DNA of 60,128 bases, from NCBI GenBank assembly GCA_020059915.1, contig JAGVBB010000002.1, positions 1-60,128 of the forward strand, given 5' to 3'. The notes beneath the pieces are model-generated. The model ran no database searches and was not told the DNA's origin. It saw only the letters and a list, made by a program, of their open reading frames with translations. Positions 912 through 49,740 of the stretch are shown one piece after another; position 1 is the first letter of the stretch, and every line of letters starts with the position of its first letter. Both the position numbers and the translations under genes were made by a program. This stretch comes from Minisyncoccota bacterium (GTDB lineage Bacteria > Patescibacteriota > Minisyncoccia > UBA6257 > GWB1-50-10).

Positions 912-3635
912 TTATGAACACCCCCCCGAAGAACTTCCACACTGAAGACAGGTTTGGCAGGTGCCCGTCCGAACCATCATGCCTCCACATTTTTTACATA
1001 CCGTATCCCCTGCTGTTTGTCCCTTCTGATAAGTAGTAGTACTCTCTTTATATTCTTCCTTCTTCGTGGCAACAGAAACGGGTTCTTTTAATTCTCTTAT
1101 CCCCATGTGTTCTTCTCCAATTACTGGATTCATACCAAATTCGGAAAGATCATCCACTGAAAGAAAGCGCAATGAAAGATATCTAAAAATATAGTCGGCA
1201 ATACTTGTCGCAATTTTAATGTTTGGATTTTCAGTAAATCCAGCTGGCTCAAAACGTGTATAGATAAACTTTCGCGCAAACTCTCTAAATGGGACGCCAT
1301 ATTGCAATGCCATTGATACAGAAATCGCAAATGTATCAAGAAGTCCGGAAAGTGTGCTTCCTTGCTTTGACATACGAATAAAGATTTCTGCTAATGTTCC
1401 ATCCTCAAACATTCCATAAGTAAGGTATCCGCTATGTCCTGCTATAGAAAATTTATGAGTTTCAGAAACGCGTGTCATAGGAAGTTTTTTACGCAAAGGA
1501 ACTTCTGTGTGTCCCGCTGGTGTCTTCTTTTCTTTTTTCTCGGAAGTATTGAGTGGTTGTGTCGCTTTTGACCCATCGCGATATACCGCAAATGCTTTGA
1601 TCCCCAATTTCCACGCCATTGTGTACGATTCTGCAATTTCTTCAACACTTGTTTCGTGTGACATGTTGAACGTTTTTGAAATTGCTCCAGAAATAAATGG
1701 CTGTACTGCCGCAACCATTTTTACATGTCCTTTCCAAGAAATAGTTCGTGTTCCTTTCGCCGGACGAACAGCACAATCAAATACAGGAAGATGCGATTCT
1801 TTTAAGTGGGGTGCATTTTCAATTGTCCCCTCACTTGCTATCCATGCGACAATATCATTTTTTTCTGTTTCATTGTATCCAAGTTTTGTGAGAGCTGATT
1901 CAATACTCGTATTCACAATCTTCATCCATCCGCCACCAACAAGTTGTTTCATCTTCACAATAGAAAAATCTGGTTCAACACCCGTCGTATCACAATCCAT
2001 CATGAATGAAATTGTTCCCGTAGGAGCAAGCACAGTAACCTGCGCATTTCTATATCCCGATTTTTCTCCCATTTCATATGCCTCATCCCAAACAATTTCT
2101 GCCTCTTTTGCTAATTTTTTATCATCCAAATACATCGTATCAATTTCACGTGATGCCGTTTGATGCATTTTAATCACATTAAGCATTGGATCCTTGTTCA
2201 ATTCATATACTTCAAACGCTCCCATCCGCTTTGCAATTACCGAAGAAAATCTATACGCCTCTCCAGACATAAGTGAGGTAATTGCTCCTGCCCACGCTCG
2301 CCCCTCTTCTGAGTCATATGGAATTCCCTTAGTCATAAGGAGTGCCCCTAGATTGGCGTATCCAAGGCCTAATTGCCTCATTTTATGGGTGTTTTCCCCT
2401 ATTCTCTCTGTTGGATAGCTTGATGCATCTACGATAATGTCCTGGGCCAAAATAAACATATCAACTGCATGTCTAAACTCTTTTACCATAAACGATCCAT
2501 CTGCTCTCACAAATTTCATTAAGTTAATAGAAGCAAGGTTACACGCTGAATTATCAACATGCATATATTCTGAACATGGGTTTGATGCGTTGATGCGCCC
2601 AGAATTTGGACATGTGTGCCACTTATTAATTGTTGTATCAAATTGCACACCTGGATCTCCACACTCCCATGCGGCTTTTGCAATTTCTTGTAAAACATCT
2701 CGCGCTCTATATGTTTCTGCGATACGTTTTGATGTTACATATTTTGTTTGCCAATCTGCGTCTTTTTCAACAGCATCCATAAATTCATCGGAAATACGAA
2801 TAGAGTTGTTTGCATTCTGATATTGAATTGAATTCCATGCTTCATCATTCAAATCTCCCATGTTGTATCCCGCATCCATAAGTGCATGAATCTTTTTTTC
2901 TTCTTCTGATTTCACACGAATAAATTCCAAAATATCTGGATGATCAATATTTAACACAACCATCTTTGCTGCACGTCGTGTAGTGCCTCCAGATTTTATC
3001 ATTCCCGCAACAGAATCTGCTCCACGCATAAATGAAACCGGACCAGATGCATGTCCACCTTTAGAAAGTGATTCATTCTTTGCGCGTAATGAAGAAAGAT
3101 TTATTCCAGCACCAGAACCACCTTTGAAAATCATTCCCTCAGTTTTTATCCAATCAAGTATGGATCGCATATCGTCTTCAACAGAAAGAATGAAACATGC
3201 AGAACATTGTGGGCGCTCTTTTGTCCCCACATTAAACCAAACAGGACTATTAAACGATCCTCTTTGGTGTAATAGAATGTGTGTTAATTCATCTTCAAAA
3301 ATTTGTGCCTGTTTTATGTTTGTAAAATATCCAAACTTTTCCCCCCACGTACGAATTGTCTTTGCAACTCGTGTTATCATTTGTTTCAAACTTTCTTCAC
3401 GCTCTGGAGATCCTAATTTTCCACGAAAATATTTTGATACAGTAATATTTACTGCATTCGGAGACCAAGATTCAGGAAACTCGACATGCTCTTGTTTAAA
3501 TGAGGCAACACTCGCATCGCGAAAAACCCATTTCACTTCATCGAACGGATGTATGTTCTCTTTTGTAAACATACGACGAAATGCAATCTGACTTTTTGTT
3601 TTTACATTAATTTTGTCGAGTTTCTTTATTGCCAT
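912..3635 (-). CDS. nrdJ: Class II (B12-dependent) ribonucleotide reductase with TSCPD-like domain and C-terminal zinc ribbon
   Basis: FNSPVW, QCSACFI, ASNPCSEY, CNLASIN, APTGTIS and YRDGSK motifs; C-terminal CKKC..CLQC..GGCS. Confidence 0.95.
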   Translation of the reverse strand: MAIKKLDKINVKTKSQIAFRRMFTKENIHPFDEVKWVFRDASVASFKQEHVEFPESWSPNAVNITVSKYFRGKLGSPEREESLKQMITRVAKTIRTWGEKFGYFTNIKQAQIFEDELTHILLHQRGSFNSPVWFNVGTKERPQCSACFILSVEDDMRSILDWIKTEGMIFKGGSGAGINLSSLRAKNESLSKGGHASGPVSFMRGADSVAGMIKSGGTTRRAAKMVVLNIDHPDILEFIRVKSEEEKKIHALMDAGYNMGDLNDEAWNSIQYQNANNSIRISDEFMDAVEKDADWQTKYVTSKRIAETYRARDVLQEIAKAAWECGDPGVQFDTTINKWHTCPNSGRINASNPCSEYMHVDNSACNLASINLMKFVRADGSFMVKEFRHAVDMFILAQDIIVDASSYPTERIGENTHKMRQLGLGYANLGALLMTKGIPYDSEEGRAWAGAITSLMSGEAYRFSSVIAKRMGAFEVYELNKDPMLNVIKMHQTASREIDTMYLDDKKLAKEAEIVWDEAYEMGEKSGYRNAQVTVLAPTGTISFMMDCDTTGVEPDFSIVKMKQLVGGGWMKIVNTSIESALTKLGYNETEKNDIVAWIASEGTIENAPHLKESHLPVFDCAVRPAKGTRTISWKGHVKMVAAVQPFISGAISKTFNMSHETSVEEIAESYTMAWKLGIKAFAVYRDGSKATQPLNTSEKKEKKTPAGHTEVPLRKKLPMTRVSETHKFSIAGHSGYLTYGMFEDGTLAEIFIRMSKQGSTLSGLLDTFAISVSMALQYGVPFREFARKFIYTRFEPAGFTENPNIKIATSIADYIFRYLSLRFLSVDDLSEFGMNPVIGEEHMGIRELKEPVSVATKKEEYKESTTTYQKGQTAGDTVCKKCGGMMVRTGTCQTCLQCGSSSGGCS

Positions 3636-3731
3636 AACTTTACTGTATCACAGGTAAAAATCTTTACTATGTACATAACCACCCGACAAGAAAGAAAACG
3701 GGACAAACTGTCCACTTTTTTGCGAATGTGT

Positions 3732-3760
3732 AAAAACTCCCCAATATATGGAGAGTTTTT
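3732..3760 (-). terminator. Terminator after ftsZ
   Basis: aaaaactcccc-aatatat-ggagagttttt. Confidence 0.6.
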
Positions 3761-13923: not shown

Positions 13924-13951
13924 TTTTTAGCTTTTAGCGGTTAGCTATTAG
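13924..13951. repeat. Heptamer array (NNNTTAG)x4
   Basis: tttttag cttttag cggttag ctattag. Confidence 0.75.
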
Positions 13952-13975
13952 CATTACAATAGTTTAAACGACTTT

Positions 13976-14323
13976 TTATAATTTTGAAATAAATACATTA
14001 AGCATTTTCATTACTTCTTCTAACTTCCCCTCAATACATCGAAACAACTCAATATCAATTAAACCAATACGTTTAGCAATTTCAAGTTGAGTATTAAGTT
14101 CTGATCCAGAGCCATATGCAATCCGAAGAAATTGTTTAAACTCCTTATCTATTCCTCGCATTCGTCCCTCTGCAATATTTGATGGGATAGAAACAGCACA
14201 TCTTCTCATTTGTGAAACTAGACCAAACATCTCACTCCTTGGAAATTTTTCTGTGATTACATACACATCAGAGACAATGTCCATACTCCGCTGCCAAATT
14301 AAAAGATCTTTGTATGATTTCAT
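13976..14323 (-). CDS. Four-helix-bundle protein (23S rRNA IVS protein-like family)
   Basis: SYKDLLIWQ, FPRSEMFGLVSQMRRCAVSIPSNIAEG, GSGSELNTQL. Confidence 0.93.
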   Translation of the reverse strand: MKSYKDLLIWQRSMDIVSDVYVITEKFPRSEMFGLVSQMRRCAVSIPSNIAEGRMRGIDKEFKQFLRIAYGSGSELNTQLEIAKRIGLIDIELFRCIEGKLEEVMKMLNVFISKL

Positions 14324-14327
14324 ATAG

Positions 14328-14355
14328 CTAACAGCTAAAGACTAATGGCTAATTG
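14328..14355. repeat. Heptamer array (CTAANNN)x4, inverted relative to 13924-13951
   Basis: ctaacag ctaaaga ctaatgg ctaattg. Confidence 0.75.
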
Positions 14356-14359
14356 CTAG

Positions 14360-39401: not shown

Positions 39402-40577
39402 CTATTTACCAAAAATATTAGAAAGACGCTGTAATGCTTCCACTATATCTTCCTTTGTTGTCTGATAACCAAAACTTGCTCGCACACCATTTATTTTTTT
39501 ATCATCCCCTCCATACATTGCGGATAATACATGTGATGCGCTGTGTGCACGTGCAGAACAGGCAGATCCAGAAGAAAAAGCAACGCCCAATAGATCTGCT
39601 TGTGTTAAAAATTCTTCTCGATTCATTTCTTGTAAATGAATATTAACAATATGTGGCGCATGTTTGCCGACTCCGTTTATCTTGCTTTCCGGGAAAATTT
39701 TCAAGAATCCTTTTATAAATTCTTTCCGTAGCAACTCAACGCGTTTCAGTTCTTTTTTCCTGTTTTTTTGAGCAACAGAAAATGCTTCTGTACAACCCAC
39801 AATATTTTGAACATTCTCAGTCCCCGATCGCAAACCAAATTCCTGACCACCACCAGTAATGATGGGGGTTAGTGGGTGGGGGTTAGGGGGTAGAGTAGAA
39901 ACAAGAACACCAACACCTTTTGGTCCACCACATTTATGTCCGGAAACAGTAAGCACATCAACACCAAGTTCTTTCAGTGAACAATCAAAATATGAGAATG
40001 CTTGGACGGCATCGGTGTGAAAGATAGGGGTTAGGGGGTGGGGGTTAGGGGGTAGAGATTTTTTAAAGTCAGAAACGATACAGGAGATTTCTTTAATTGG
40101 TTGAACAGATCCAATTTCGTTGTTCACATACATAATGGAAACAAGAGCAGTATTTTTTGTTAAAGATTTTTTTAGTTCATCCAATAAAATAATTCCATCT
40201 TCATCAACGGGGAGAAGCACAAGGTCTATTTTCTTTTCACGTTCAAGTGTGCGAGCAGTTTCAAGAACAGATTCGTGTTCAATACTCGAAATAACAACTC
40301 GTGGCACACCATTTCCCCTCCAGTTAGCAACAACCCCTCTCAAGGCAAGATTGTTTGCCTCGGTTGCAGAGCCACAGAACAACACACCGCGAAAATCAAC
40401 ATCAAATATCTTTGCTATTCGTTCGCGCGCACCATCAATGGCTCCCATGGCCTCCTGGCCAAAAGAATGAAGCGATCCTGGATTTCCAAACTTTATATTA
40501 AAGTATGGGATCATCGCTTTGATAACCTCTTTTCTTACTGGCGTTGTCGCCGCATAATCAAGATAAATTCGCCTCAT
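39402..40577 (-). CDS. Cysteine desulfurase (NifS/IscS class V)
   Basis: YLDYAATTP, GNPGSLH, HTDAVQA, SGHKCGGPKG, RSGTEN, SSGSACS; ATG at 40577. Confidence 0.94.
   Translation of the reverse strand: MRRIYLDYAATTPVRKEVIKAMIPYFNIKFGNPGSLHSFGQEAMGAIDGARERIAKIFDVDFRGVLFCGSATEANNLALRGVVANWRGNGVPRVVISSIEHESVLETARTLEREKKIDLVLLPVDEDGIILLDELKKSLTKNTALVSIMYVNNEIGSVQPIKEISCIVSDFKKSLPPNPHPLTPIFHTDAVQAFSYFDCSLKELGVDVLTVSGHKCGGPKGVGVLVSTLPPNPHPLTPIITGGGQEFGLRSGTENVQNIVGCTEAFSVAQKNRKKELKRVELLRKEFIKGFLKIFPESKINGVGKHAPHIVNIHLQEMNREEFLTQADLLGVAFSSGSACSARAHSASHVLSAMYGGDDKKINGVRASFGYQTTKEDIVEALQRLSNIFGK
39861..39895. repeat. In-frame heptamer insert, copy 2 (encodes LPPNPHPLTP)
   Basis: 33/35 identical to 40023-40057. 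Confidence 0.9.
40023..40057. repeat. In-frame heptamer insert, copy 1 (encodes LPPNPHPLTP)
   Basis: Coding strand ctacccc ctaaccc ccacccc ctaaccc. Confidence 0.9.
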
Positions 40578-40617
40578 CACTCCATATATTGCCACACTTG
40601 ACAAAATACACAATAAT

Positions 40618-47668: not shown

Positions 47669-48313
47669 GTGGTAGCAAATAAAATAATCTGGACAGAAAA
47701 CATTGCATATGCCGTTGGAGTAATAGCCTCTGATGGTAATTTAAATAAACTAAGAAAAAGAATACAGCTAAAATGCGCGGATTTTGAGCTTGTTAATAAT
47801 TTGAAAAAATCTTTAAATCTAAAGGAAAATATAAAAACAACAAAAGCAAAAAGTGGACGAATACATTACTATATAATGTTTACACAATCAGATTTTTACG
47901 ATTTTTTAATCTCTATAGGAGTTGAACCAAAAAAATCTCACTCAATAAAACATGTTTTAGTTCCAAAAAGATTTTTCAATGACTTTCTTCGTGGTTTATT
48001 TGATGGCGATGGAACATTTTATACATTTTGGGATACAAGATGGAGAAATAGCTTTGGGTATCAGATTTCATTTTCCTCTGCTAGTAAGGCATTTATTTCG
48101 TGGTTAAAAAAAGAAAACACAAAAAATTTTTCTGTTAAAGGATTTATTAGGAAAGGTAAAAATGTATATAATTTGCGGTATGTAAAGGGAGACACTAGAA
48201 ATTTATTTAAAATGATGTACTATAATAGCCATAGTCTTTCTCTTACTCGAAAAAAGATGAAAATGGTTGAAGCGTTTAAAAAAGAGAGAGATATAAAGAA
48301 AAAGCCACGGTAG
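47669..48313 (+). CDS. Two-motif LAGLIDADG homing endonuclease (start uncertain)
   Basis: AYAVGVIASDG and FLRGLFDGDG. Confidence 0.9.
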   Translation: MVANKIIWTENIAYAVGVIASDGNLNKLRKRIQLKCADFELVNNLKKSLNLKENIKTTKAKSGRIHYYIMFTQSDFYDFLISIGVEPKKSHSIKHVLVPKRFFNDFLRGLFDGDGTFYTFWDTRWRNSFGYQISFSSASKAFISWLKKENTKNFSVKGFIRKGKNVYNLRYVKGDTRNLFKMMYYNSHSLSLTRKKMKMVEAFKKERDIKKKPR

Positions 48314-48378
48314 CTCAGTGGTGGAGCGCTGCCCTGAAGAGGCAGGCGTCGGGGGTTCGATTCCCTCCCGTGGCACCA
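48304..48378 (+). tRNA. tRNA-Phe(GAA), CCA encoded
   Basis: GCCACGG/CCGTGGC acceptor; CTGCC-CTGAAGA-GGCAG anticodon arm. Confidence 0.95.
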
Positions 48379-49211: not shown

Positions 49212-49253
49212 AAAGTTCAGATGAAAAAACATTCCGCGATGCGGAATGTTTTT

Positions 49254-49531
49254 TTTGTCGGCACTTCGCACTGCTGTATTCAGCACCTCCTTCGCCTTCG
49301 CTTTTTGTCGGCACTTCGCACTGCTGTATTCAGCACCTCCTTCGCCTTCGCTCAGTCGGGATGCCGGGAATCGCCTCTCGCTCTACTGAGCTCGAAACCT
49401 ACGACCTCTCTTCGAGGTCTGCGGCCCGCGGTTCGATTCCATTTCAAAAAATAAAAAACGGGGCAAGAAGCTCCGTTTTTTATTTGTCGGTACTTCGCAC
49501 TGCTGTGCTCAGCACCTCCTTCGCCTTTGCT
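49254..49531. repeat. Three 49-bp direct repeats, a 22-bp tRNA-Pro 3'-end copy and the 74-nt element (copy B)
   Basis: Copies at 49254, 49304, 49483; 49352-49373 equals 49531-49552. Confidence 0.9.
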
Positions 49532-49534
49532 CAG

Positions 49535-49605
49535 TCGGGATGCCGGGAATCGAACCCGGCCTACCTGCTCCCAAAGCAGGCGTACTACCGATATACTACA
49601 TCCCG
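49535..49605 (-). tRNA. tRNA-Pro(TGG)
   Basis: CGGGATG/CATCCCG; CCTGC-TTTGGGA-GCAGG. Confidence 0.95.
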
Positions 49606-49668: not shown

Positions 49669-49740
49669 GCCCCCGTAGTTCAACGGATAGAATAGCTCCC
49701 TTCTAAGGAGTAGATTGAGGTTCGATTCCTCGCGGGGGTA
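49669..49740 (+). tRNA. tRNA-Arg(TCT)
   Basis: GCCCCCG/CGGGGGT; GCTCC-CTTCTAA-GGAGT; GGTTCGATTCC. Confidence 0.92.

Follow-up and report, generated by a model that had tools for sequence, protein, structure and literature searches.

Two nearly identical 35-nt tracts built of tandem C-rich heptamers lie in frame in a cysteine desulfurase family gene of the window, i.e., the whole stretch of 60,128 nucleotides (60 kb) that was analysed. We consider that these tracts are probably heptanucleotide simple-sequence repeats at the DNA level, tolerated by the protein and copied between two of its loops, rather than a conserved protein feature. Repeats of this type are known in bacteria as arrays of 4–5 heptanucleotide units capable of forming a G-quadruplex (G4). 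Among the long simple-sequence repeats of prokaryotes, those with heptanucleotide units are the commonest, and no established origin or role was found for them in the literature consulted. The locus is a clean case of a heptamer array residing, twice, inside an essential-type enzyme.

The host gene (39402–40577, minus strand) was assigned to the NifS/IscS-like class-V aminotransferases based on Pfam, PDB and synteny. It starts with ATG at 40577, ends with a stop codon at 39402–39404 and encodes a product of 391 aa; the mechanical ORF extends to a TTG at 40613. The product matches PF00266 (E 2.5e-62), and its top PDB matches are cysteine desulfurases (E 8e-77). It possesses the PF00266 fold, the PLP lysine (SxHK), the His/Asp/Gln contacts to PLP and the catalytic cysteine (SSGSAC) of this class. 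Residues H102, D190, Q193, K216 (the PLP lysine), C341 and R367, numbered on the 392-aa translation starting at GTG 40580, are invariant among 26 homologues. The NCBIfam models for NifS, DndA and IscS all match, each below its equivalog cut-off (for NifS, TIGR03402, 323.7 versus 530.75; for IscS, TIGR02006, 290.8 versus 643.2), and judging from sequence the gene is best classed simply as a ‘cysteine desulfurase family protein’. The order NUDIX/desulfurase/SIMPL/HtrA/ClpB is common to the window and the orthologues (syntenic loci L001–L007), and homologues and synteny put the window in Patescibacteria/Paceibacterota. The nucleotide identity between the desulfurase gene and its orthologues was 0.80, 0.90 and 0.44 at codon positions 1, 2 and 3, respectively, which indicates purifying selection on the gene. 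The GC content of the genome is 38%.

The site-1 tract (40023–40057, minus strand) has the coding strand CTCTACCCCCTAACCCCCACCCCCTAACCCCTATC and encodes (S)LPPNPHPLTPI, and the site-2 tract (39861–39895, minus strand) has the coding strand CTCTACCCCCTAACCCCCACCCACTAACCCCCATC and encodes (T)LPPNPHPLTPI. On the plus strand, the letters are gataggggttagggggtgggggttagggggtagag at 40023–40057 and gatgggggttagtgggtgggggttagggggtagag at 39861–39895; as a DNA oligonucleotide, the site-2 tract is GGGGGTTAGTGGGTGGGGGTTAGGGGG. The tracts are identical at 33 of 35 positions, the two differences being C/A and T/C, and both are read as CT CTA CCC CCT AAC CCC CAC CC(C/A) CTA ACC CC(T/C) ATC, giving LPPNPHPLTPI. 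The first immediately precedes FHTDAVQ and the second ITGGGQE, exactly as the earlier note had read them. A repeat search widens the pair to 38 nt (35/38 identical), with a start-to-start distance of 162 nt, or 54 codons. Site 1 is located between the helix 162–175 and the strand bearing H188/D190/Q193, and site 2 between the strand after the PLP lysine (224–228) and the GGGQE loop. The PLP-binding core (FHTDAVQ...SGHK...GVGVLVS) is encoded by the segment between these direct repeats (39896–40022, minus strand, 127 nt); if the two tracts recombined, 54 codons would be lost in frame, among them that of the catalytic lysine.

Each tract consists of the units CTACCCC CTAACCC CCACCCC CTAACCC CTATC, several 7-nt units arranged head to tail as in other bacterial heptanucleotide arrays. 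The description of the tracts as CTAMCCC heptamers holds as regards their heptamer basis but is approximate, since CYACCCC and CTAACCC alternate and the effective repeat unit is 14 nt, present in about 2.4 copies. TRF reported periods of 7, 8 and 14; the cleanest was 14 (1.9–2.1 copies, 93–100% matches), and period 7 gave 4.4 copies with 79% matches. The 13-mer GGGGTTAGGGGGT, with at most two mismatches, occurs four times in the 60-kb window, in every case within the two tracts; the mean in shuffled sequence was 0.51, and none of 100 shuffles reached four. A search of both strands of the whole 60 kb with the G4 regular expression G3+N1-7G3+N1-7G3+N1-7G3+ matched only the two tracts, both on the plus strand, i.e., the template strand of the gene. 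The G4 capability ascribed to this strand beforehand is therefore borne out by the motif search; ViennaRNA with G-quadruplex terms also predicts a G4 in both tracts (RNA parameters only).

No inverted repeat, palindrome or hairpin was found at or around the tracts, and no terminal repeats or target duplications were seen. The 60-kb window contains no further tract copies, either at up to two mismatches or in loose C-run/G-run scans. An exact 20-mer of the tract gave five matches, all unrelated, in a collection of genome contigs without this genome, and a 26-mer variant gave two matches in metagenome contigs, both to unrelated high-GC intergenic arrays; the window's tract variant was absent from other genes in these two collection scans. 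The only Rfam matches of the window at the gathering threshold were six tRNAs; neither the tracts nor the arrays around the four-helix-bundle (4HB) gene discussed below gave any.

The codons of the tracts are atypical. CCC makes up 11% of proline codons in the genome and CTA 6% of leucine codons, and the probability of the observed codon string given the peptide is about 1e-9. The two sites share 9 of 11 codons, for which the probability (at least 9/11 identical, given the same peptide) is 3.5e-3. With codons this rare, the identity of the two sites lies at the DNA level. LPPNPHPLTP is the only open frame of the C-rich array: TAA-bearing units alternate with TAA-free ones, and two TAA units 14 nt apart close two frames (14 = 2 mod 3), while TAG closes every frame of the G-rich strand. 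This frame closure by TAA/TAG explains the orientation of the array, its 14-nt period and its limit of about 2.4 units. In all arrays compared that lie inside long ORFs, the spanning open frame was on the C-rich strand, and no comparable spanning frame was found on the G-rich strand among these in-ORF arrays. It is also worth mentioning that the two 14-mers are translated in different frames. These observations suggest a rule for the survival of such arrays in coding DNA: alternation of TAA-bearing and TAA-free units, the C-rich strand as sense and no more than about 2.4 14-nt units.

The AF2 model of the desulfurase (pLDDT 87.8) places both tracts in coils flanking beta strands, at residues 176–185 for site 1 (pLDDT about 85) and 230–239 for site 2 (pLDDT about 65). 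Based on this model, the two sites are predicted to be solvent-exposed surface loops; together with the intact catalytic residues, this agrees with the proposal of the earlier note that the loops are permissive. The site-1 loop is longer by 9 aa than that of PDB 9wep and by 3 aa than those of the repeat-free orthologues L004 and L005, and the site-2 loop is longer by 3 aa than that of 9wep and equal in length (0 aa) to that of L004. With a net change of +3 aa and 0 aa, the tract mostly replaces loop sequence. The view that it was inserted in frame twice is correct as to the frame and the number, but little was added to the protein. The tracts sit in coil of a conserved protein and are absent from L004, L005 and L006, as is expected of in-frame elements.

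The alignment with orthologues, which the earlier note had named as a check, revealed no conserved Pro-rich loop: the motif was present at site 1 in 2 of 112 homologues and at site 2 in 5 of 112. The closest orthologues (L004, L005 and L006) keep the gene and have no repeat at either site. Other syntenic orthologues carry arrays with a period of 7 or 14 at the same loops. L001 and L007 have two copies of CCCTACCCCCTAAA and of CCCTATCCCCTAGA, respectively, at site 2, and L001 exceeds the window gene there by 7 aa, that is, by three additional degenerate heptamers (21 nt). Arrays of five NCCCTAN units are present at both sites of L103, and (AAATTCG)3 is found at both sites of L003; L102 has ATCCTAW at site 1 and MACCTAM at site 2, and L104 has CTACYAC at site 1. 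Wherever an orthologue has the tract peptide, its DNA there is periodic. These alignments show both loops to be recurrent repeat hot-spots, with sequences that are the same within one gene and different between lineages.

Paralogous copies are more alike than orthologous ones. Site 1 of the window gene is identical to its own site 2 at 33/35 positions, to site 2 of L001 at 30/33 and to site 1 of L001 at only 25/33, against a background third-position identity of 0.44 versus orthologues. At three positions, the paralogous copies agree within the window gene and within L001 but differ between these genomes. In L002, a block of 78 nt is identical at both sites and includes native site-1 codons (SDFKNSL); this is an unambiguous site-1-to-site-2 copy carrying native flank. 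A block of about 100 nt is common to both sites of L105, and a peptide of at least 10 aa is common to both loops in 4 of 112 homologues. The window/L001 identities, the three paralogue-concordant positions and the L002 block together uphold the idea of homogenisation by local conversion that had been put forward from the window alone. According to this comparative evidence, two loops of one gene repeatedly exchange sequence, a natural case of intragenic conversion reshaping protein loops.

A strain about 95% identical to the window, assembled independently from groundwater metagenomes, has both tracts without gaps or joints. It differs within them by point changes only (G>A at 39864, 39889 and 40040), giving 3 differences in 70 nt of tract and 48 in 955 nt of the rest of the gene. 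As the tracts diverge at about the gene-wide rate, homogenisation would be episodic, not continuous. In contigs from four related metagenome runs, which contain only this 95% relative, no 162-nt deletion joints, indels or unit-number variants were found; this is a weak test, as contigs drop rare variants. The exact desulfurase protein is recorded from three contigs. A separate observation concerns run X2, in which one unrelated contig matches the tract alone and then continues with other G-rich heptamers, leaving a loose end at 40057.

Based on the above results, the following scheme can be suggested. Arrays of 4–5 heptamers with an effective 14-nt unit, a C-rich sense strand and a G4-capable template strand occupy the two loops. 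The second copy would most likely have arisen by intragenic non-allelic copying between the loops, 162 nt apart, through gene conversion or replication template switching. Microhomology may have come from the native codons at the end of each loop, which are TAYCCNCTN-like and encode YPLF (site 1) and xLxPII (site 2). Slippage within the array may then homogenise neighbouring units and alter the length in 21-nt (7-aa) steps; however, a 14-nt step shifts the frame, which makes identical adjacent 14-mers awkward in an essential gene. The copying mechanism, any role of fork stalling induced by G4 and the absence of a function at the protein level are what we infer from these patterns. A counterpoint is that no tract copy exists elsewhere in the 60 kb and none of the window's variant in the two collection scans. 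For the window gene taken alone, the pattern is also compatible with two insertions of one lineage-specific sequence, and the two readings cannot be fully separated there. The ATC (Ile) common to both sites may belong to the array instead of being native site-2 flank.

The latter reading, in which one short element was inserted or used for patch repair twice independently, is possible but unlikely. The current heptamer array of the lineage would have targeted two loops with array-like native codons (TAYCCNCTN), and it could have been produced by templated synthesis or carried by a very small mobile element akin to the inverted heptamer arms around PF05635 genes. An almost identical stretch of about 32 nt (CCCTATCCCCTAAACCCTATCCCCTAAACCCT) is indeed present in frame in unrelated genes (TIM, MurD, TatD, ATP synthase gamma and DnaE) from different CPR phyla, in several of which native residues are replaced rather than length added (TIM −3 aa, MurD +2 aa), but the likeness among these CPR matches is partly imposed by the search pattern. 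Furthermore, TIM and MurD of WY2.bin70 differ in their unit variants (TAT versus CAT twice), which points to local evolution and not to a genome-wide template. Inverted heptamer pairs around 4HB genes include CCCTAA-type arms (L126, L094, L170), and inverted pairs that enclose no gene exist as well (L098, L038, L013), of which one is in frame within an ABC ATPase (L024); the arrays beside the window's 4HB gene, however, use another heptamer, TTAGCNN, and the tracts show neither visible terminal repeats or target duplications nor a further copy within 60 kb. Insertion also leaves the copying of native flank between the sites of L002 unexplained. Less probable still is a selected DNA-level element, with the template G4s or the C-rich mRNA regulating transcription, replication or recombination of the gene, or with the direct repeats acting as a switch (frameshift or 54-codon deletion). 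It would account for the absence of any G4 motif in the 60 kb other than the two tracts, which have four G runs each and a G4 predicted for both by ViennaRNA (RNA parameters only), for arrays that remain C-rich in a 38% GC genome and recur at the loops across deep divergence, and for the in-frame spacing of 162 nt; a preference for four units and in-vitro G4 formation are also documented for published heptamer repeats (PMC4692102). Yet the closest orthologues L004–L006 keep the gene without a repeat at either site, and the loops of L003, L102 and L105 hold AT-rich heptamers or unrelated repeats incapable of forming G4. The four-run contigs, which drop rare variants, contain no unit-number or deletion variants, the tracts of the 95% relative diverge at the gene-wide rate, and the host gene, with its housekeeping role, is atypical as a contingency locus.

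Native Pro-rich loops under protein selection, for example for partner binding, with incidental repetitiveness of the DNA, are very improbable and largely refuted. Peptides of the type L-x-P-x-x-Y/H-x-L-x-P-I-I are common at site 2 of CPR homologues, the length of the site-2 loop is bimodal (15 and 19 residues) and the native ends YPLF and LxPII overlap the tract peptide. Against this stand the rarity of the motif among the 112 homologues, the non-Pro loops of the same length in the closest orthologues and the rare codons, 9/11 of them identical between the sites. Selection on the peptide would not maintain periodic DNA in all peptide-bearing orthologues with 14-mers read in different frames, and the same peptide occurs in unrelated enzymes. 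That the tracts result from faulty assembly or sequencing, for instance by chimeric joining to reads that contain repeats, is hardly credible. Metagenome-derived CPR contigs are prone to repeat-induced errors, and the unrelated X2 contig matching the tract alone could be taken in this sense; but the gene is intact and reads through both tracts in frame, both recur with point differences in the independently assembled 95% relative, the exact protein is known from three contigs and homologous arrays occupy the same sites in orthologues from other studies. Tolerated DNA-level repeats copied between the loops remain our preferred reading. One consequence concerns annotation: recurrent low-complexity peptides of the ‘LSPKPYPLNP’ type in CPR proteins can be explained as translated repeats, not motifs.

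Heptamer arrays were also found in other contexts. The tract-type 14-mer lies in frame in the CPR housekeeping genes for TIM, MurD, TatD, ATP synthase gamma and DnaE, and a pattern scan detected CCCCTAA/CCCCTAT arrays in Chamaesiphon, Microcystis, Xenococcaceae and Oscillatoria. In this window and in other phyla, four-helix-bundle genes of the PF05635 family (Avd-like, ‘23S rRNA IVS protein’) lie between inverted pairs of heptamer arrays. Arrays were present upstream at 15 of 80 such loci, downstream at 16 and on both sides at 7, a 14-fold local enrichment; these counts are conservative, since the stringent lag-7 scan misses the desulfurase tracts themselves with their effective period of 14. 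The association came from this search, and the converse one, with a CPR-type profile, located a 4HB gene at only 1 of 89 C-rich array loci (L094). No link between PF05635 genes and heptamer arrays was found in the literature searched. The only Avd-like gene of the window is 26 kb from the tracts, between genes for a thioredoxin-reductase-like flavoprotein and a DsbA-like protein, both read by eye from the ORF translation. The earlier note had matched the tracts to the arrays around this gene; the 7-nt period, the TTAG core and a general array–gene association stand, but the window's arrays have the unit TTAGCNN, not GGGTTAG, and derivation of one from the other gains no support. A TR/VR pair of a diversity-generating retroelement was considered and rejected, as there is no RT beside the Avd-like gene, the differences are C/A and T/C over 35 nt only, and the host does not have a variable-protein fold. 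It is conceivable, if quite doubtful, that heptamer arrays are the arms of a widespread PF05635 cassette family, with gene-less pairs and solo arrays as derivatives and in-gene C-rich arrays as patches made by the same machinery, surviving only if their one open frame comes to lie in a loop that tolerates it. If true, this would provide a generating mechanism for bacterial heptamer repeats, STRR-like arrays included. If the heptamer arms around PF05635 genes are borne out, the origin of the repeats becomes experimentally testable.

The tracts can be compared with several known systems. Interstitial telomeric repeats of eukaryotes are inserted during break repair. Like them, the tracts are short telomere-like blocks in unique sequence, and several CPR genes show replacement, not addition; unlike them, the tracts have a unit that is no known telomere repeat, and no telomerase or linear replicon is in evidence. 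A telomeric repeat was rejected for 35-nt tracts internal to a gene in the middle of a 60-kb window, and the term ‘telomere-like’ does not survive beyond a resemblance of letters, nothing terminal or telomerase-related having been seen. The cyanobacterial STRR sequences reported by Mazel et al. in 1990 are said to have the units CCCCAGT, TTGGTCA and CAACAGT and to form long, mostly intergenic arrays. The analogy with STRR drawn earlier is sound as to kind, both being tandem heptanucleotide arrays, but not as to membership, given the patescibacterial host, the different unit and the array of 35 nt. Rickettsia palindromic elements, reportedly described by Ogata et al. in 2000, are 100–150 nt long and occur as dozens of dispersed copies, inserted in frame within genes for proteins, and the Coxiella MITEs in coding regions may be similar. 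The tracts share with them the character of selfish or neutral repeat DNA residing in frame at tolerant surface positions of conserved proteins; a mobile element of this type was rejected, however, as the tracts are 35 nt long, not palindromic and have no more copies in the window or in the two collection scans. Like phase-variable contingency loci, the tracts are slippage-capable tandem short repeats in or near coding DNA, in which a 7- or 14-nt step shifts the frame; unlike them, they show no length polymorphism in the four-run contigs, which drop rare variants, lie in a housekeeping PLP enzyme and comprise about 2.4 14-nt units.

The elements of Geobacter metallireducens described by Aklujkar et al. 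in 2009 (PMC2700814), four tandem heptanucleotides GGACCGG in 49 copies with a proposed regulatory role, are the closest published description to the tracts, from which they differ in unit, organism and that proposed role; in the parts of that paper searched, neither the reading frame, nor the position in loops, nor exchange between copies of one gene is analysed. The G4-forming heptamers GGGNATC and GGGGA(C/T)T of Xanthomonas and Nostoc (Rehm et al. 2015, PMC4692102) occur in hundreds of dispersed copies, mainly intergenic, under-represented in coding DNA and enriched near ORF ends, whereas the tracts amount to two copies in 60 kb, both in frame within one gene of a CPR genome, with the unit GGGGTTA/GGGGGTR. 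The repeats of Rehm et al. form G4 in vitro (PMC4692102), and the G4 of the tracts is predicted from sequence. Both are nevertheless tandem 7-nt units with a G run that strongly favour about four units and so supply four G tracts, and each of our tracts contains at least four G tracts of at least three G with short loops. Within ORFs, the G-rich strand of the Rehm et al. repeats is mostly non-coding, as in the desulfurase gene, and tandemly inverted pairs of these repeats are also known.

The two tracts lie in a gene (39402–40577, minus strand) encoding a protein of 391 aa of the class-V aminotransferase family (PF00266, E 2.5e-62). Its closest solved structures are cysteine desulfurases (E 8e-77), and the protein does not reach the equivalog cut-offs for NifS or IscS. 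Among the homologues, no variation was seen in the PLP lysine, the His/Asp/Gln contacts or the catalytic cysteine. Based on the names of the homologues and the conserved synteny (NUDIX/desulfurase/SIMPL/HtrA/ClpB), the gene was placed in Patescibacteria/Paceibacterota. Orthologue identity at codon positions 1, 2 and 3 was 0.80, 0.90 and 0.44, and by this signature the gene is apparently under purifying selection. On the plus strand, the site-1 tract (40023–40057) reads gataggggttagggggtgggggttagggggtagag and the site-2 tract (39861–39895) reads gatgggggttagtgggtgggggttagggggtagag; both encode LPPNPHPLTPI, which abuts FHTDAVQ at site 1 and ITGGGQE at site 2. Structure modelling had been proposed in the earlier note, and in the AlphaFold model (pLDDT 87.8) each site falls in a coil, joining a helix to a buried strand at site 1 and a strand to the GGGQE loop at site 2. 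A third hypervariable site of the family (columns 128–190 of alignment A1, approximately residues 85–93 of the window protein) carries low-complexity inserts of 40–60 aa in the homologues P0020, P0046, P0103 and P0108 and no insert in the window protein.

The tracts are identical at 33 of 35 positions, and a repeat finder extended the pair to 38 nt (35/38 identical) with a spacing of 162 nt. A 13-mer of the tract, allowing up to two mismatches, occurred four times in the 60 kb, always within the tracts; for shuffled sequence the expectation was 0.51, and four was never reached. Both tracts are kept, gap-free and with three point differences, in a ~95%-identical strain assembled independently from groundwater metagenomes. 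This rules out an assembly artefact, and an assembly or sequencing error as the source of the tracts is hardly credible. The three changes (G>A at 39864, 39889 and 40040) produce a synonymous CCC>CCT, Pro>Leu and His>Tyr on the coding strand, the last recreating the TAC (Tyr) variant of the orthologue L001. The two in-frame, near-identical heptamer tracts read earlier from the sequence are thus real and beyond chance. Compared with PDB homologues, the loops are longer by 9 aa (site 1) and 3 aa (site 2), but the net difference from the closest repeat-free syntenic orthologues (L004, L005) is only +3 and 0 aa, so the tract mostly substitutes for loop sequence; of the in-frame insertion proposed earlier, the frame stands, while the insertion is mostly replacement. 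It is very improbable that the tracts are native protein loops, since the motif was found in only 2 of 112 homologues at site 1 and 5 of 112 at site 2, and the conserved Pro-rich loop that the earlier note had named as contrary evidence was not seen at both sites. The codons also argue against a native loop: the genome, at 38% GC, seldom uses them (CCC 11% of Pro and CTA 6% of Leu codons), the codon string has a probability of ~1e-9 given the peptide, and the two sites share the same codon at 9 of 11 positions (P = 3.5e-3 under peptide-only selection). Judging from codon usage, the tracts are evidently a feature of the DNA and not of the protein.

Tandem Repeats Finder called periods of 7, 8 and 14 in the tracts, 14 being the cleanest. 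The true unit is 14 nt and consists, in alternation, of one heptamer lacking TAA (CTACCCC or CCACCCC) and one bearing it (CTAACCC). Since 14 = 2 mod 3, two TAA units shut two frames and leave one open; a third would shut the last, and the G-rich strand contains TAG in all three frames. Owing to this closure, the C-rich strand is always sense, coding copies end at ~2.4 units, and the single open frame always gives the peptide L-[SP]-P-x-P-[YH]-P-L-x-P. All three features held in every in-ORF example found elsewhere.

Both loops are repeat hot-spots across the desulfurase family. Site 2 of L001 contains CCCTACCCCCTAAA x2 plus two degenerate units, and that of L007 (49% identity, 51% GC) contains CCCTATCCCCTAGA x2. 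Among the other orthologues, L103 carries NCCCTAN x5 at both sites, L102 has ATCCTAW at site 1 and MACCTAM at site 2, L104 has CTACYAC at site 1, and L003 has (AAATTCG)3, encoding IRNSKFEI, at both sites (3521–3559, 3721–3748). The unit differs by lineage and neighbouring units within one gene are often identical, a pattern that would be expected of ongoing local homogenisation. Site 1 of the window gene matches not only its own site 2 (33/35) but also site 2 of L001 (30/33) better than the orthologous L001 site 1 (only 25/33). At three positions both window copies have one base and both L001 copies another; the third-position background identity to orthologues is 0.44. In L002 (3001–4332), a 78-nt block including the native site-1 codons for SDFKNSL is identical at both sites, and site 2 terminates in the remnant CCCCCCTAACCCCTAT; on sequence comparison, this reads unambiguously as a site-1 to site-2 copy. 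The block also holds an internal hairpin-like CCTGCCTGCCGGTAGGCAAGG (peptide LPAGRQG). In L105 (588–1919), ~100 nt of an unrelated repeat of CPR (Patescibacteria) are common to both sites; the shared block encodes NSKLEARNxKQIQN...ISNFDIRISDL. A peptide of at least 10 aa was common to both loops in 4 of 112 homologues, the usual longest stretch being 2 aa. Site 2 of L001 exceeds that of the window gene by 7 aa, i.e., three additional heptamers, and such a 21-nt step can be made by slippage with the frame intact. In the ~95%-identical strain, change in the tracts has kept pace with that of the whole gene, so homogenisation is occasional; with this restriction, the comparisons back the local conversion suggested in the earlier note. 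We suggest that the tracts are probably a tolerated heptanucleotide array: intragenic copying would have doubled it into the second of two permissive loops, and its intermittent recurrence would keep the two arrays alike, while the sole open frame sets the peptide. A less likely origin is that an array, generated or mobile, was inserted twice independently. The tracts are the window's only canonical G-quadruplex (G4) motifs on either strand, which agrees with the G4 capability noted earlier at the level of motif; that they represent a selected G4 or switch element is more doubtful still.

A two-unit degenerate pattern found 89 loci in 185,579 species genomes, with ~0.004 expected by chance (our own arithmetic, assuming uniform base composition); sequence likeness among these matches is partly forced by the search pattern. 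The loci took three forms: long intergenic arrays (cyanobacteria, Chloroflexi, Acidobacteria and others), inverted G-rich/C-rich pairs, and ~32-nt tracts within real CPR genes. The CPR hosts of in-frame tracts were housekeeping genes unrelated to one another, namely MurD (L016/L087), triosephosphate isomerase (TIM; L037/L063/L080), ATP synthase gamma (L068), TatD (L069), DnaE (L100) and a TraG-like ATPase (L078). In several CPR lineages, the C-rich array is CCCTATCCCCTAAA x2.3 with the peptide [KQN]TLSPKPYPLNP. A beta strand directly follows the tract in the desulfurase model and, by our reading of the alignments, in TIM, TatD and MurD, and the tract partly replaces native residues (TIM −3 aa, MurD +2 aa, TatD +9 aa). 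In WY2.bin70, both MurD units share one T>C change that is absent from its TIM. An Anaerolineae locus (L024, ~392–418) has an inverted G-rich/C-rich heptamer pair in frame in an ABC-transporter ATPase (peptide IRDKGQGSEVPLSPNPYPLTPA), placed after the N-terminal strand and before the Walker A region; akin gene-less pairs occur in L013, L031, L032, L038 and L098.

The earlier note had also linked the tracts to the arrays around a four-helix-bundle gene (PF05635/TIGR02436, Avd-like, '23S rRNA IVS protein'; 13976–14323, minus strand, 115 aa). This gene is flanked by inverted heptamer arrays (span 13925–14358), with TTAGCNN on the gene strand before the ATG (14328–14358) and GCTAANN after the stop (13925–13952). 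They are the window's only arrays with at least four units of CTA every 7 nt (0.01 expected). Among 80 further such gene loci from many phyla, stringent period-7 arrays lay within 150 nt upstream in 15, downstream in 16 and on both sides in seven, where the two arrays are reverse complements. Array density adjoining the gene was 14 times that elsewhere in the same 80 loci, and complementary flanks occurred in 46/74 loci vs 0/74 in the mismatched-locus control. The heptamer sequence is lineage-specific, with CCCTAA-type arms in L126 (Daviesbacteria), L170 and L094. The association makes the cross-reference worth pursuing, but the window's own arms are TTAGCNN and no sign was seen that the desulfurase tracts derive from such cassettes. 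A search of one paper library found no description of heptamer arrays flanking PF05635 genes. Elsewhere in the window, a perfect tandem duplication of the 50-nt unit TTTTTGTCGGCACTTCGCACTGCTGTATTCAGCACCTCCTTCGCCTTCGC (49252–49352) adjoins a tRNA gene cluster (49535–49605, 49669–49740, 48304–48375).

Heptamers are the most frequent long simple-sequence repeats of prokaryotes (PMC4679880). The G4-forming GGGNATC-type repeats of Xanthomonas and Nostoc show a marked four-unit preference and are under-represented on the ORF coding strand (PMC4692102). The desulfurase tracts belong to this general kind of bacterial heptamer repeats. Membership tests did not support their assignment to STRR (cyanobacterial heptamer repeats), RPE/MITE, telomeric, DGR or contingency-locus repeats; the analogy with STRR drawn earlier holds for the tandem-heptamer kind, but not for membership. 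Unlike the published heptamer repeats, the desulfurase tracts reside as an in-frame pair within a conserved enzyme, in its catalytic core region, and they show a frame rule and documented exchange between two loops.
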